DNA of 5,944 nucleotides from a virus (taxonomy: Duplodnaviria; Heunggongvirae; Uroviricota; Caudoviricetes). Below are positions 608-5,558 of the stretch, piece after piece. The notes beneath the pieces are model-generated. The model made no database searches. It was given only the letters and a program-made list of their open reading frames with translations, and was not told where the DNA came from. Within the stretch, counting starts at the first letter, position 1. Every line of letters starts with the position of its first letter. The translations under genes and the position numbers were made by a program. The stretch lies in IMG/VR virus record IMGVR_UViG_2585427756_000006; one strand, written 5' to 3'.

Positions 608-770
608 CTTTGTGGTAATAGGCCAGTCAACCAGCAGGATGCGTGTAAGCGAATTTGCGGAGCTATTAGAGCTTATACAGGCATTCGGTACAGAGCGTGG
701 CGTTAAGTGGTCAGACGAAGCGCGACTGGCTCTCGAATGGAAAGCGCGATGGGGAGATCGGGCTGCATGA
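608..770 (+). pseudogene. ninB: 3' remnant of a nin-region gene (probably ninB) truncated by the IS insertion
   Basis: Open frame runs from the IS boundary with no stop ([53 protein letters not shown]), ending in TGA 768..770 that overlaps the next ATG as ATGA. No upstream start remains except an internal ATG at 639. NinB assignment is from memory of the lambda NinB C-terminus and the usual ninB-methylase gene order. Confidence 0.5.
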
Positions 771-1294
771 CTATCAAATCAAATACGCCAGCACACGACA
801 AGGACTGCTGGCAAACGCCGCTTTGGCTTTTTGATGCACTGGATATTGAGTTTGGATTCTGGCTGGATTCGGCAGCGAGCGACAAAAATGCTCTGTGCGC
901 TCACTGGCTAACTGAGGACGACGACGCGCTCAATTCTGAGTGGGTAAGCCACGGTGCAATCTGGAATAACCCACCGTACAGCAATATCAGGCCGTGGGTG
1001 GAAAAAGCCGCTGAGCAGTGTATACAACAGCGACAGACGGTAGTGATGCTTGTGCCAGAGGATATGTCTGTCGGATGGTTCAGCAAGGCTCTGGAGAGTG
1101 TTGACGAAGTTCGTATTATCACTGATGGACGGATTAATTTTATCGAACCATCGACAGGGCTGGAGAAGAATGGAAACAGCAAAGGCTCCATGCTGCTGAT
1201 TTGGCGACCGTTCATCAGTCCTCGACGGATGTTTACTACCGTATCCAAAGCGGCATTGATGGCGATCGGGCAGGGCGTCAGGAGGGCTGCATGA
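767..1294 (+). CDS. Phage DNA N6-adenine methyltransferase (Dam-like orphan methylase)
   Basis: 175 aa; NPPY catalytic motif ([10 protein letters not shown]) of N6-adenine methyltransferases; conserved N-terminal WQTP..WLFD; ATG 767 overlaps upstream stop (ATGA); SD-like GGGGAGA about 10 nt upstream. The GTG at 707 listed in the ORF track is an upstream extension. Confidence 0.8.
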
Positions 1295-1467
1295 GACGAC
1301 AGCGACGAAGCATCACCGACATAATCTGCGAAAACTGCAAATACCTTCCAACGAAATGCTCCAGAAATAAACGCAAGCTAATCCCAAAAGAATCTGACGT
1401 AAAAACCTTCAATTACACAGCCCACCTGTGGGATATCCGGTGGCTAAGATATCGTGCGAGGAAATGA
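1291..1467 (+). CDS. ninE: NinE-family protein
   Basis: 58 aa [58 protein letters not shown], matching lambdoid NinE from memory; ATG overlaps methylase stop (ATGA); SD AGGAGGG at 1280..1286. Confidence 0.8.
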
Positions 1468-1469
1468 CA

Positions 1470-1811
1470 ATGGATTATTCACAGTTAAGTGATTTTGAAA
1501 TTAACAGAATGGTAGGAGACATAATTTTTAAAGGCCTTTGGGCAAGTAAACCGGAAACATCAGGGAATAACACCAACAAATGGTATTACGGAAATGCTGA
1601 TACAACTTTTGAGCCATTAAATCATTTGCCTGACTACTGCAATGATCCGAGCGCTTCATGGCCGATTATTGAGAAATACAGGATTTCTATCTTAGACCAG
1701 TTAACTGAATGGTGTGTGGATGCAAAAGGCGTAAGCCCAATATTTGATACCAGACCTCTCCGCGCCGCCATGATTGTCTTTCTCCTGATGCAGGAGGCCA
1801 ATAATGCTTAG
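1470..1811 (+). CDS. Conserved phage protein of unknown function, NinX-like (DUF2591-type) by position and recollection
   Basis: 113 aa [24 protein letters not shown]...; SD GAGGA at 1458..1462 with 7 nt spacing to ATG 1470; sits directly after ninE as NinX does in P22-like nin regions. Family name is from memory and unverified. Confidence 0.6.
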
Positions 1812-1998: not shown

Positions 1999-2021
1999 AA
2001 GAGGGGGTTATTAAGGCGTGA
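1932..2021 (+). pseudogene. ybcO: 3' remnant of ybcO-like (DUF1364 putative nuclease) gene; N-terminal coding part absent
   Basis: Frame-0 translation ...[29 protein letters not shown] matches the C-terminus of K-12 DLP12 YbcO from memory; an in-frame TAG at 1890..1892 and no start codon upstream of the homologous segment; stop TGA 2019..2021 overlaps rusA GTG. Confidence 0.5.
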
Positions 2022-2380
2022 ATACCTACAGCATCACATTACCCTGGCCTCCGAGCAATAATCGCTATTACCGCCATAATCGCGGGCGCACGCACGTCAG
2101 CGCAGAGGGGCAGGCATACCGCGATAACGTCGCCCGAATCATTAAAAACGCAATGCTGGATATCGGCCTGGCTATGCCTGTGAAAATCCGCATTGAGTGC
2201 CACATGCCGGATCGCCGTCGCCGTGACCTGGATAATCTGCAAAAAGCCGCTTTTGACGCACTCACTAAAGCAGGTTTCTGGCTGGATGATGCTCAGGTCG
2301 TTGATTACCGCGTTGTGAAGATGCCTGTTACCAAAGGTGGGAGGCTGGAACTGACCATCACCGAAATGGGGAATGAATGA
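2018..2380 (+). CDS. rusA: Holliday junction resolvase RusA
   Basis: 120 aa [38 protein letters not shown]... essentially as I recall E. coli RusA; GTG start overlapping upstream stop (GTGA); SD-like GAGGGGG at 2000..2006. Confidence 0.9.
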
Positions 2381-2517: not shown

Positions 2518-2602
2518 AGTCAGAGATAACAATCAACTAATACTGTTTTGTTGATTTTTGCTTGTAATTGGCGTTCTGGTCTGATTTTTGTGGAGTAAGT
2601 TG

Positions 2603-2986
2603 ATGCGTGATATTCAGATGGTTCTTGAGCGTTGGGGTGCGTGGGCGGCTAATAATCATGAAGATGTGACCTGGTCGTCCATTGCCGCCGGTTTTAAGGG
2701 ATTAATTCCTTCAAAAGTAAAATCTCGCCCGCAATGTTGTGACGATGACGCGATGATCATTTGCGGGTGCATGGCCCGTCTGAAAAAGAACAACAGCGAT
2801 TTACACGATTTATTAGTAGATTATTATGTATGTGGTATGACATTCATGTCACTGGCAAGTAAGCATTGCTGCTCGGATGGTTATATCGGGAAAAGGTTAC
2901 AGAAGGCTGAGGGCATAATTGAAGGGATGTTAATGGCATTAGATATCCGGTTAGATATGGATATCGTTGCTAATAATTCTAATTGA
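2603..2986 (+). CDS. quuD: Late-gene transcription antiterminator Q (Q82/QuuD type)
   Basis: 127 aa [34 protein letters not shown]... with Cys-rich zinc-binding region ([12 protein letters not shown]); SD GGAGT 6-7 nt upstream of ATG 2603; position immediately upstream of a terminator and the lysis genes. The TTG at 2588 in the ORF track is an upstream extension. Confidence 0.85.
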
Positions 2987-3010
2987 TATGCAATTGTTTA
3001 CTAAAAGTTA

Positions 3011-3037
3011 TTAAAAATGGGGCGTGGAAACGCCCCC
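3011..3037 (-). terminator. Candidate intrinsic terminator oriented for the minus strand (porin transcript)
   Basis: GC-rich 6 bp stem GGGGCG/CGCCCC (3019..3024 / 3031..3036) with 6 nt loop; on the minus strand it is followed by ATTTTTAA. About 140 bp downstream of the porin stop. Confidence 0.35.
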
Positions 3038-3123
3038 AAAATAAAGGGTAATATATAACAGAAGGTTTATATAGTAAGAAGCAAGGTAGTGCTTCTAAAG
3101 GAAGTGGCTTGAGGGCTCCACTT

Positions 3124-3163
3124 ATATGTTGCGGAGGCAAAGCCTCCCGCAACATATCTTTTT
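3124..3163 (+). terminator. Strong intrinsic terminator on the plus strand; candidate tR' downstream of Q
   Basis: Roughly 15 bp near-perfect stem ATATGTTGCGGAGGC / GCCTCCCGCAACATAT (one bulge) with AAA loop, followed by CTTTTT. Lies about 140-180 nt past the Q stop and 11 bp beyond the convergent porin stop. Confidence 0.5.
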
Positions 3164-3174
3164 CGTAAGTCAGA

Positions 3175-4257
3175 TTAGAACTGATAAACCAGACCTACAG
3201 CGACGATGTCGTCGGTATCAATACCAGCTGTTTTGGTAAACTTACTATCGTCAATTAAGTTGATTTTGTAATCAACAAAAGTAGACATGTTTTTATTAAA
3301 GTAGTAAGTAGCACCGACATCGACATACTTGACTAAGTCTCGGTCACCATGAACACCAAGGTCTTTACCTTTTGACTGAAGGTAAGCAACAGATGGGCGC
3401 AGACCGAAGTCAAACTGATATTGTGCTACTGCTTCAAAGTTTTGTGCTTTGTTTGCAATATGGTTATTACCAAAAACGGTCATATTCTGAGTTTCAGAAT
3501 ATGTGGTAGCCAGATAGATATTGTTCGCATCATATTTCAGGCCTGCAGCCCATACTTCCGCATTTTTGCCGGAGGCATTGAATTTGCTCTTACCATAGGC
3601 GACCTGACCGTCAGTGCGATCTGATTTAGCATAGGTTGCACCCACGCCGAATCCTTCATACTCATAAGTAGTGGAGAAACCGAAACCATCACCATTGGCT
3701 TCAGTTACGTCAGTGCGGTCATTTTTACCCTGATACTGAGCAGCAAAGTTCAGGCCATCGACCAGACCAAAGAAGTCGTTGTTACGATAAGTTGCAACAC
3801 CAGTAGTGCGACCAGTCATGAACACATCTGTTTGGGTCCAGGTATCACCACCGAATTCTGGCAGAACGTCAGTCCACGCACCGATGTCGTATGCTACACC
3901 GTAGTTACGGCCGTAATCGATGGAGCCGTAATCACCAAATTTCAGGCCTGCAAATGCAAGACGGGTTTTGTCTTTGGAAGAACCTTGAGATTCAGCACGG
4001 TTGCCTTTGAATTCATATTCCCACTGACCGAAACCAGTCAGTTGATCGTTGATTTGGGTTTCACCTTTGAAGCCAAGACGGGCATAAGTAGTATCACCAT
4101 CATCTGCATCATTAGAGGAGAAGTAGTGCTTGGCATTAACTTTCCCGTATAGATCCAGCTTGTTACTGTCTTTATTATAAATTTCAGCTGCCTGAGCAGA
4201 CATCGCCATCAGTACTGATGCAGCTACAGCAGAAATTGCCACTGTTAATTTTTTCAT
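3175..4257 (-). CDS. nmpC: Outer membrane general porin, NmpC/Lc (OmpC/OmpD family), apparently intact
   Basis: 360 aa; signal peptide [23 protein letters not shown] followed by AEIYNKD; beta-barrel porin features and C-terminal ...VGLVYQF; SD AAGGG upstream of ATG at 4257..4255. The ORF-track start at 4317 is an N-terminal over-extension. Confidence 0.9.
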
Positions 4258-4420
4258 TGTACGCCCTTTTTTTGAACTATTATTAAAAAATGATGTCACT
4301 GCGCGATAAATATTCATCTAATCAATGTGATTATTTCAAGATGTAAGTTTTAGTTTCTCATTTAATTTGTGAAGTAGATCTCTATTTTTATCTGAACCTT
4401 TTCTATCTAATCCTATTCAT
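4258..4420 (-). promoter_or_regulatory. Probable porin promoter / 5' UTR region (AT-rich)
   Basis: Minus-strand reading contains TTGAAA -35-like hexamer with plausible but weak -10 candidates 17-19 bp downstream. Exact elements not resolved by eye. Confidence 0.3.
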
Positions 4421-4683
4421 GGCTCTTGTCTGAACAAAAATAAATCTATTAGCTAATTTATATTAATGGCACTTATTTATAAGTGCTCTATAATTCTTTA
4501 GCTTAATTTAAACAAACTAAAAATAACATCGGAAATTATTAACTGATTATTTGTTGAAGTTTTCTTATGTATTTGTGGTGGTGTTTTGAACACTCGGTGG
4601 CATTCTCACAAATATCATTTAGTAGTTTACGTACGTAAAAAATTGGTTATGCTGTTAAGAGTGGTTACTTCGTCACACAGCTT

Positions 4684-4716
4684 AAACCCGCCGTCGAGCG
4701 GGTTTTTCCATTTTTT
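4684..4716 (+). terminator. Intrinsic terminator on the plus strand within the AT-rich spacer upstream of the holin gene
   Basis: Stem AAACCCGC / GCGGGTTT (4684..4691 / 4698..4705) with loop CGTCGA, followed by TTCCATTTTTT. A-run before and T-run after, so it may also work bidirectionally. Confidence 0.5.
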
Positions 4717-4845
4717 GAGTCTCGATATTAGCTGATAACCCAATACCTGAGTTATTCACTGACTCCGAATCTGTTACGTTTCTGCCTTTATTGCGATACG
4801 TAATATCCCCTTAATTTACACCCGCTTTGTCTGCGAGGTGGGGTT

Positions 4846-5061
4846 ATGAAATCCATGGATAAGTTAACAACGGGTGTCGCCTATGGCACCTCAGCAGGTA
4901 GTGCCGGTTACTGGTTTTTACCGCTGCTCGATAAAGTCACGCCCTCACAGTGGGCAGCAATAGGTGTGCTGGGTAGCCTGGTATTTGGCCTGCTGACGTA
5001 CCTGACAAACCTTTATTTCAAGATTAAAGAAGATAAGCGCAAGGCTGCGAGAGGTGAATAA
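4846..5061 (+). CDS. essD: S21-type pinholin with dual-start motif (antiholin from Met1, holin from Met4)
   Basis: 71 aa [71 protein letters not shown]; two TMDs; Met-Lys-Ser-Met dual start; SD GAGGTGGGG upstream; stop overlaps next gene (TAATG). Confidence 0.9.
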
Positions 5062-5558
5062 TGCCTCCATCATTACGAAAAGCCGTTGCTGCTGCTATTG
5101 GTGGCGGAGCAATTGCTATAGCATCAGTGTTAATCACTGGCCCAAGTGGTAACGATGGTCTGGAAGGTGTCAGCTACATACCATACAAAGATATTGTTGG
5201 TGTATGGACTGTATGTCACGGGCATACAGGAAAAGACATCATGCTCGGTAAAACGTATACCAAAGCAGAATGCAAAGCCCTCCTGAATAAAGACCTTGCC
5301 ACGGTCGCCAGACAAATTAACCCGTACATCAAAGTCGATATACCGGAAACAATGCGCGGCGCTCTTTACTCATTCGTTTACAACGTGGGTGCTGGCAATT
5401 TCAGAACATCGACGCTTCTTCGCAAAATAAACCAGGGCGATATCAAAGGCGCATGTGATCAGCTACGTCGCTGGACATATGCTGGCGGTAAGCAATGGAA
5501 AGGTCTCATGACTCGTCGTGAGATTGAGCGTGAAATCTGTTTGTGGGGTCAGCAATGA
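5061..5558 (+). CDS. rrrD: SAR endolysin (R21-type, T4-lysozyme-like muramidase, GH24)
   Basis: 165 aa; N-terminal Gly/Ala-rich weakly hydrophobic SAR domain ([20 protein letters not shown]); catalytic triad spacing E35-D44-T50 ([18 protein letters not shown]); stop overlaps the Rz start (ATGA). Confidence 0.9.

Follow-up and report, generated by a model that had tools for sequence, protein, structure and literature searches.

Short constitutive RNAs that end at a terminator designated tR′ and arise as by-products of antitermination are made by phage lambda, whose 6S RNA is 194 nt long, and by phages 21, phi80, 82 and P22. The Shiga toxin (Stx) phages H-19B, 933W and Sp5 follow the same logic of a constitutive promoter, early termination and Q-dependent read-through. 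Their unit, from which Shiga toxin is expressed, immediately adjoins the Q stop codon, and the morons of these phages (tRNAs and stx) are located downstream of its terminators. The transcription start site (TSS) of Stx PR′, mapped by differential RNA sequencing (dRNA-seq), and the 3′ end at tR′, mapped by Term-seq, are 258 nt apart, and RNase E processing of this PR′-tR′ transcript yields its 3′ 74 nt as the small RNA (sRNA) StxS (Sy et al., 2020). In the cassette of phage 21 (6P18/6P19, 6JNX), which adjoins Q, the Q-binding element (QBE) consists of two 8-bp subsites in direct repeat, located between the −35 and the −10, and only a brief leader separates the start from a terminator that lies within ∼+50. 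For the Escherichia coli K-12 prophage DLP12, Q-type control of the lysis cassette has already been described: PMC7918800, citing Rueggeberg (2013), reports that a phage Q-type antiterminator governs the DLP12 lysis genes. Described here is the interval between the porin and holin genes in a 5,944-nucleotide stretch of the virus record IMGVR_UViG_2585427756_000006 (IMG/VR), which is referred to below as the window and is a nin-to-lysis segment of a lambdoid temperate phage. Positions 4626–4716 of the window very probably constitute a Q-dependent late promoter, pR′, with a Q-binding site, a short leader and tR′, split from the Q gene by a reverse-oriented porin moron; this reading is drawn from sequence comparison. 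The essD promoter of K-12 DLP12, which is associated with Q(DLP12)/QuuD, is the orthologous locus, K-12 being identical to the window across 4619–4769, and the anatomy of TSS, palindrome and terminator set out below may not previously have been described for it.

Homology and position of the probable late promoter

Positions 4623–4712 of the window align with the PR′ region that adjoins the Q genes of H-19B and Sakai Sp5, the aligned elements being TTTACG(TA/AT)CGTAAAAA, TAT(G/C)(C/A)T, G(T/A)TAAGAGTGGTTAC and CCCGCCG...GCGGGTTTTT. A sensitive search of a phage collection found the core to be ∼82% identical to many Stx phages including H-19B, and in H-19B, 933W and Sp5 the homology extends from the palindrome via the −10, TSS and leader to the first hairpin and its U-tract. 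The H-19B and Sp5 sequence TTTACGATCGTAAAAATCTGCATATCATGATAAGAGTGGTTACATTGCCAC...AACCCGCCGATGCGCGGGTTTTTTT starts within the last codons of the Q gene, and the Q proteins of H-19B, Sp5 and the window all belong to PF06530. In Sp5, the mapped distance of 258 nt begins at A746 of GATAAGAG, located 7 nt past the −10 hexamer TATCAT, and extends as far as the final U residue of the terminator downstream. Alignment with this mapped start would place the +1 of the window pR′ at A4660, downstream of a weak −35 (TTTACG, 4626–4631) and of a TATGCT hexamer that aligns with the TATCAT of H-19B and Sp5 PR′. In K-12 (NC_000913.3), A4660 corresponds to position 577,229 and 4706–4716 to 577,275–577,285.

The −10 keeps the form TAnnnT across contexts and genera (TATCGT, TAATCT, TATTGT, TACTCT, TACTGT, TAAACT and TAACGT), and the fixation of T1, A2 and T6 while the inner bases are free indicates that the element is under selection. 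Among 80 loci encoding a Q protein at least 97% identical to that of the window, nearly all with porin, 4601–4720 is 96–100% identical even where porin identity falls to 86% and that of 4451–4600 to 83%. Several loci have mosaic junctions directly past the hairpin, diverging at 4707, and in phage cdtI the homology starts at 4652, after two unrelated reverse-oriented genes. An exact 24-mer (4678–4701) is found in more than 120 viral contigs representing 27 different contexts, which share ∼60 nt of the form TAnnnT-GTTAAGAGTGGTTACTTCG(C/T)CACACAGCTT-hairpin-T-tract; upstream of this core lie an A-tract and a palindrome of 8–14 bp, and the flanking DNA is unrelated among contexts.

The Stx unit and that of the window differ in what separates them from Q. 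In H-19B and Sp5 the Q stop codon is followed by the TSS after 21 nt, whereas in the window the distance from 2986 to 4660 is 1,674 nt and is occupied by the reverse-oriented moron, so that the promoter does not directly follow Q; the window moron thus lies upstream, between Q and promoter, unlike the downstream morons of the Stx phages. Two Trabulsiella odontotermitis prophages encode a Q that is 83–84% identical, followed after 39–40 nt by the identical palindrome TTTACGTACGTAAA and the same leader. A pR′ directly after Q in the window (2987–3174) was considered and rejected, as this segment has no plus-strand promoter-like site and the homologous promoter was found at 4626–4660 instead; a short-word BLAST of 2987–3174 against other Q-downstream regions gave chance matches only. 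The phages Lambda_ev087 and IdasGreatGrand were likewise discarded as guides to the locus, because their Q is 85% identical but the conserved promoter core is lacking and the arrangement is different. In both (L007 3894–4030 and L005 3394–3530), a plus-strand terminator resembling the Stx +258 tR′ (AGCCAGCCTCCCCAAAGGCTGGTTTTTTTT) is located directly past Q and is followed by a reverse-oriented lipocalin gene (blc).

Palindrome and Q class

A perfect 14-bp palindrome, TTTACGTACGTAAA, is located between the −35 and −10, at the site that the QBE has in the annotation of phage 21 and in the Q21 structures; the first six bases of the palindrome (TTTACG) double as the weak −35. The palindrome is unique in the window, where none would be expected, and is invariant in 70 distinct alleles of the porin-holin spacer. 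For every locus carrying the conserved leader, the nearest upstream Q was taken and the proteins were clustered at 75% identity. The first cluster (C1, 17 distinct proteins) is accompanied by ACG(TA/AT)CGT at 129 of 130 loci, the exception having an IS1 end at −22; the second (C2, 15 distinct proteins) by GCGTACGC at all 27 loci; and the third (C3, 12 distinct proteins) by GCGG(T/C)CCGC (GCGGTCCGC) or a one-base variant at all 19. Overall the palindrome variant tracks the Q class in 175 of 176 loci, and the pairing holds across 0.02–3 kb of intervening DNA of differing content and extends to Atlantibacter, Phytobacter and one more enterobacterium. A divergent Q from Kosakonia oryziphila (39–45% identical to the other classes) is followed ∼82 nt on by the 10-bp palindrome TGTAATTACA and the same leader, and this combination looks like a further specificity class. 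Since it co-varies with the Q class across many prophages, the 14-bp palindrome is probably the Q-binding element, and the maintenance of the pairing across different intervening morons argues for a functional coupling of the two.

In one locus (L187) and two similar ones, the A-tract contains, ∼22 nt upstream of the predicted TSS, the terminal repeat GGTGATGCTGCCAACTTACTGATTTAGTG, which we take to be that of IS1. The insertion removes the palindrome and the −35 and spares the −10 and leader, and is by its position a predicted natural promoter knock-out in some prophages.

Leader and terminator

The first 24 nt of the predicted transcript change little or not at all from one Q class to another and among at least eight enterobacterial genera, while the sequences on either side do change. 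Polymerase probably pauses here, close to the promoter, and is loaded with Q, or else the segment is an RNA seed. The leader can form a small GUGG...(U/C)CAC hairpin at +2 to +17, which shows a single G-C, G-U, A-U series, too little to argue from. It is followed by a hairpin, AAACCCGC-CGTCGA-GCGGGTTT, and then TTCCATTTTTT, with a folding energy of −11.6 kcal/mol (z −2.8). The RNA 3′ ends would be expected at about 4706–4716, giving an RNA of ∼50 nt (48–57 nt). In other genera, different stems and U-tracts are found at slightly different distances (CCTCG/CGAGG, CCCTGCCA/TGGCGGGG and CCTCGC/GCGGGG), and because a terminator is kept with differing stems it has evidently been selected as a terminator. 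No polymorphism within 4638–4737 is common to at least two of the 70 spacer alleles, and the neighboring DNA varies. Downstream of the hairpin, 4718–4737 and 4818–4845 are invariant and 4778–4797 is indel-prone in these alleles, and a terminator scan of 4717–4845 detected no second terminator-like site. This single terminator ahead of the holin gene may explain the basal expression reported for the DLP12 lysis genes.

The window aligns with only the first ∼55 nt of the Stx transcript; the Stx phages have a second terminator at +258, which is absent here, leaving the first hairpin alone and no StxS-like part. The leaders of H-19B (L207 1531–1556) and Sp5 (L208 769–796) carry the same hairpin with seven U residues at ∼+24 to +50. 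A Stx PR′ RNA of ∼50 nt may have been missed in the published libraries, or the hairpin may terminate poorly there.

The phage 21 cassette belongs to the same PF06530 family, serves the same S21/R21 type of lysis genes and has its element between −35 and −10, where the candidate of the window is also found, together with a very short leader and a nearby terminator as in the window. It differs in that its QBE is a direct repeat whereas the window candidate is palindromic, in that it adjoins Q, and in its pause element, no TAAGCT-like counterpart of which occurs at +2 to +8 of the window. The lambda 6S RNA belongs with an unrelated Q family and has no sequence similarity to the window.

Proposed mechanism

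Host σ70 RNA polymerase would start at about A4660 from TTTACG and TATGCT, and without Q would halt at 4684–4716 and release an RNA of ∼50 nt. During lytic growth, Q produced from 2603–2986 would bind the 14-bp palindrome between −35 and −10 and load onto the promoter-proximal polymerase, and the modified enzyme would then continue beyond tR′ and transcribe the genes for holin and endolysin and the other late genes. The reverse moron of 1.67 kb between Q and pR′ would consist of the IpeX region, the porin gene and the porin promoter with its AT-rich upstream DNA; because it lies upstream of pR′ and is reverse-oriented, late transcription would never cross the porin gene. A short plus-strand RNA that ends at the 4684–4716 terminator is thus a likely by-product of the antitermination cassette. 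Homology, anatomy and co-variation are seen in the sequences; the TSS in the phage of the window, Q binding to the palindrome, the efficiency of the terminator and read-through are inferred.

Q(DLP12) reportedly shifts an essD promoter fragment. Phage 434B is propagated with a DLP12-type Q-porin-lysis segment instead of the one native to 434, and this segment carries the label “region of 434 nonhomology” in OL657227; this suggests that the module can drive late gene expression, and the segment was presumably acquired from DLP12 by recombination.

Several observations weigh against a Q-dependent pR′ at this position. The promoter is weak by consensus (8/12) and was not flagged by the promoter scan, and neither K-12 577,229 nor 577,253–577,285 has an entry in the supplements of Adams (2021). 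A reporter described in PMC7918800 as a −121 to +650 construct was built with primers that map to window 4187 and 4968, which implies that Rueggeberg (2015) set the +1 near 4308 rather than 4660; the lysis genes may accordingly receive transcripts from a second promoter as well, one reported to depend on RpoE. The only solved QBE, that of Q21, is a direct repeat, whereas the window element is palindromic and its Q only 29% identical to Q21, and the co-variation of palindrome and Q class could derive partly from common descent of modules rather than from recognition. Inspection of +1 to +25 by eye revealed no hexamer with A2 and T6 that could serve as a sigma-dependent pause element; a TAAGAG resembling the TAAGCT of phage 21 overlaps the TSS. 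The terminator itself is affected by a stem change from GCGGG to GCTGG (4698–4702, 3′ arm) in 14 of the 70 alleles, including that of PA-2 itself, and to GCGGA in one more, which weakens the hairpin (−8.4 and −8.1 vs. −13.9 kcal/mol when the stem variants are folded). Finally, as the 258-nt Stx PR′ RNA was mapped past the homologous hairpin, this hairpin is no complete block in the Stx phages, and its efficiency in the window is uncertain.

Alternative explanations

The interval had been described in an earlier note, made from the letters of the window alone, as a strongly AT-rich non-coding spacer of ∼590 bp beginning at 4318, with a plus-strand sRNA as the favored interpretation. Its composition was borne out (GC 0.26–0.31 over 4201–4600 vs. 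∼0.45–0.55 elsewhere), as was the scarcity of reading frames, the sole frame of at least 40 codons being a 49-aa TTG frame at 4586–4735. The length was also correct and the left edge was not: the porin start is the ATG at 4257 rather than 4317 according to the PA-2 lc record and RefSeq annotation, and the spacer is accordingly 4258–4845 (588 bp). Both the clean hairpin with T-tract at 4684–4716, which ends 130 nt ahead of the holin ATG at 4846, and the TATAAT at 4489–4494 are present as described. Neither hexamers nor promoters are above chance, the window containing two copies of TATAAT vs. 4.4 ± 2.3 in shuffled sequences and, by consensus scan, one σ70-like site vs. 6.0 ± 2.0; terminator-like sites number three vs. 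1.7 ± 1.5, and the 4684–4716 hairpin is therefore meaningful because it is conserved and not by within-window statistics. The headline proposal, an sRNA of ∼215 nt transcribed from an independent promoter, ATGGCA-17-TATAAT (4466–4494), and ending at this hairpin, is improbable. The site is the only one to pass the σ70 consensus scan (10/12) and its TATAAT is kept in 61 of the 70 alleles; its −35 (ATGGCT, ACGGCT or ATGGCA) and spacer vary freely, however, and it is situated in 4478–4517, the most polymorphic stretch of the spacer. The segment is also missing from every porin-free context that retains the terminator, a transcript from it would need to traverse pR′, and the transcript predicted from pR′ (∼50 nt) is far shorter. 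A second suggestion of the same note, a displaced pR′-qut-tR′ unit with the porin moron between it and Q, stood as to the unit, given the Stx homology, and had to be corrected as to the promoter, which is located at 4626–4653 with its TSS at 4660. The left two-thirds of the interval delimited in the note (4318 to ∼4620) is porin moron.

Other readings concern what the conserved block might do besides antitermination. That the ∼50-nt pR′-tR′ RNA acts in trans, probably as an Hfq-binding sRNA with its invariant 5′ 24 nt as seed, would be compatible with the Q-dependent pR′ and is on balance unlikely. The build is typical of sRNAs, with a weakly structured or unstructured 5′ part followed by a Rho-independent terminator and U-tail, and +1 to +24 is near-invariant across genera and across Q classes that are only ∼50% identical, while the terminator sequence changes; there is also the precedent of StxS, processed from the Stx PR′-tR′ RNA to an Hfq-binding sRNA, and antiterminated promoters have been proposed as a rich source of sRNAs (Sy et al., 2020). 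StxS, however, comprises the last 74 nt of a 258-nt RNA and not a leader segment, the invariance of the leader is equally well explained at the level of DNA and polymerase (pausing and Q loading onto a conserved host enzyme), RefSeq annotates no non-coding RNA at the locus in the top-matching genomes and no Rfam family covers it, a cmscan of the whole window at E values up to 1 having returned ALIL at 156–272 alone and nothing in the interval. No relevant report from RNA interaction by ligation and sequencing (RIL-seq) was found under names such as nmpC.essD, and HnrS, a 66-nt multicopy prophage sRNA (PLoS Pathog 2026), was rejected as a candidate, its reported 15-nt complementarity to the end of mazF being absent from the window and the compared loci. 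It is likewise improbable that the leader AGUGGUUACUUCG(C/U)CACACAGCUU is the seed of a widespread ∼50-nt prophage sRNA made constitutively from pR′ in lysogens. Still less probable is that the block serves the porin, with 4660–4680 as a CRP site and the hairpin as an insulator for the moron. The second CRP site of GenBank J02580, the PA-2 lc record of 1986, does map to 4660–4680 (L003 1730–1750) and its right half, TCACA, fits the CRP consensus, but the left half, TGGTT, is a poor half-site, the position is ∼400 nt upstream of the porin start, and the sequence is present in dozens of porin-free prophage contexts, including Stx phages directly past Q; this PA-2 “CRP binding site” is probably the pR′ leader from +1 to +21, wrongly annotated. 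Finally, there is next to no likelihood that the interval encodes IpeX, the sRNA repressor of OmpC and OmpF from DLP12/PA-2, which the earlier note had mentioned for the nmpC region of such prophages. IpeX has been assigned to the nmpC region of DLP12-type prophages, which amounts to neighborhood alone, and it arises from the porin promoter, whereas the interval is upstream of porin with its terminator on the plus strand; a structured 167-nt segment with its own terminator at 3008–3174 on the minus strand fits IpeX instead.

The porin moron, IpeX-equivalent region and variable spacer

IpeX (167 nt) is made from the phage porin promoter within the porin transcript (2025 review, PMC12197685), and should therefore be sought 3′ of porin on the minus strand. 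The window shares prophage type and moron with DLP12 and PA-2; in this arrangement IpeX and pR′ flank the porin gene from its two sides and are on opposite strands. The region 3008–3174 begins after the porin stop codon, is 167 nt long and ends at a minus-strand terminator, 3036..3019, which is the only one in the region with a GC-rich stem. Its minus-strand fold has −53.6 kcal/mol (z −6.5), and it shares 94% identity with the quuD-nmpC spacer of K-12. The name ipeX is absent from the K-12 RefSeq record listing. Read on the plus strand, the first hairpin of this region (3125–3158) is followed by CTTTTT and could be a stop for early transcription leaving Q. At 2997–3006 on the plus strand, 11 nt past the Q stop codon, TTTACTAAAA resembles the pR′ palindrome TTTACGTACGTAAAA minus its central 5 bp, and may be a remnant of a promoter that adjoined Q before the moron was inserted, or could equally be a chance match.

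Upstream of porin, one CRP site annotated in PA-2 J02580 maps to 4365–4385, and 4278–4317 and 4378–4397 are nearly invariant across the 70 alleles; the porin promoter presumably lies within 4258–4400. A direct repeat, TTATCTGAAC (4388–4397) and TTGTCTGAAC (4426–4435), is found at 38-bp spacing upstream of the presumed porin promoter and is possibly a pair of regulator half-sites, or a chance match. On the plus strand, 4275–4308 contains TGAACT-N15-TGTCAC, which has the look of an RpoE-type promoter, would read from the porin 5′ untranslated region (UTR) toward the late promoter and coincides with the +1 implied by the −121/+650 reporter (PMC7918800; Rueggeberg, 2015). The variable spacer that follows probably belongs to the porin moron, as DNA that is regulatory from upstream or is silenced. 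A palindrome between the −35 and −10 of its TATAAT, GCACTTAT-TT-ATAAGTGC, was discounted, being present in only 6 of the 70 alleles. An inverted-repeat finder run at seed 7 missed both palindromes, which were verified by pattern search and by eye. At the right end of the spacer, the 49-aa TTG frame on the plus strand spans the late promoter, leader and terminator; several phage records, including Kati, ev207 and PhiR57_1, carry a “hypothetical protein” feature beneath this region, which is almost certainly not a gene.

Gene content and relatives of the window

The features of the window are listed in Table 1. Positions 2588–5061 are 100% identical to Escherichia phage 2G7b, and identity to PA-2, phage 434B and K-12 DLP12 is ∼90%. 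Spacer homologs are carried by ∼60% of complete E. coli genomes (3,276 of 5,426), K-12 among them. The window Q is 80% identical to that of H-19B and matches the solved Q21 chains 6p18/6jnx at E 4e-8. The lysis and late genes are 3′ of the candidate pR′ and on the same strand as Q, and their holin and endolysin homologs in phage 434B carry dual-start annotations. The nin region is broken, next to the Dam methylase gene at the left window end, by an insertion sequence (IS) element, with an orfA fragment of the IS3 family at 227–553 and an ALIL pseudoknot (RF01497, 120 bits) at 156–272.

Table 1. Features of the 5,944-nucleotide window, in order of position.
Feature	Position	Strand	Basis or description
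IS3-family fragment with ALIL frameshift pseudoknot	156–553	−	Rfam
Dam methylase gene	707–1294		
NinX gene	1428–1811		
RusA gene	2018–2380		
Q antiterminator gene (QuuD/Q933 subtype, Q21 family)	2603–2986	+	Pfam PF06530, E 6.7e-54
IpeX-equivalent structured 3′ region of porin transcript	3008–3174	−	Fold, terminator, length
Porin gene (lc/nmpC/OmpD-like)	3175–4257	−	Pfam Porin_1, E 1.9e-151
Porin 5′ UTR and promoter region, with CRP-like site TGTGAAGTAGATCTCT within 4365–4385	4258–4400	−	PA-2 J02580
AT-rich variable spacer, with TATAAT (4489–4494) and weak −35 ATGGCA (4466–4471)	4401–4622	.	GC 0.26–0.27
14-bp perfect palindrome TTTACGTACGTAAA, candidate Q-binding element	4626–4639	+	Centered at −27.5 (−34 to −21)
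−10 hexamer TATGCT	4648–4653	+	16-bp spacer from TTTACG
Predicted TSS (+1, A)	4660	+	Aligned from dRNA-seq-mapped Sakai Sp5 PR′
Initial transcribed region AGTGGTTACTTCG(T/C)CACACAGCTT	4660–4683	+	Nearly invariant
Intrinsic terminator tR′	4684–4716	+	8-bp stem, 6-nt loop, T5-CCA-T6 tail
Leader to lysis genes, ending in holin ribosome binding site (GAGGTGGGG)	4717–4845	+	Allele survey
S21-type pinholin gene, dual start	4846–5061	+	Pfam PF04971/PF00959 for holin and endolysin pair
Signal-anchor-release (SAR) endolysin gene	5061–5558	+	Pfam PF04971/PF00959 for holin and endolysin pair

Implications for prophage late gene control

The comparison would fix the late promoter of DLP12/PA-2-type prophages to the single base and sets it apart from the porin control region and IpeX. 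Were a Q-dependent pR′ the wrong interpretation of 4626–4716, the interval would be porin upstream DNA with a terminator and little would change. From the pairing of palindromes and Q classes it is predicted that swapping ACGTACGT, GCGTACGC, GCGGTCCGC and TGTAATTACA should swap Q specificity, and this prediction stems from a family whose sole structural model, Q21, uses a direct repeat. If the pR′-tR′ RNA should also prove to be an sRNA, a “palindrome code” for the specificity of Q could be read from the same 100 bp, and reverse-oriented morons, defense genes among them, would preferentially insert between Q and its promoter.

In other Q classes, the Q-pR′ gap is occupied by between one and three genes, reverse-oriented and of widely differing kinds (L107 1421–2167 (−), L145 1121–3955 (+), L100, L095, L091, L131 and L125). 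Those matching defense models include an HNH endonuclease (PDC-M68A) and a cytosine methylase-like gene beside an OLD/HEC-04-like ATPase, and most have no match; the gap looks like a hotspot for morons and defense genes. Morons would be insertable between an antiterminator gene and its target promoter with the circuit intact and the moron itself outside late transcription.

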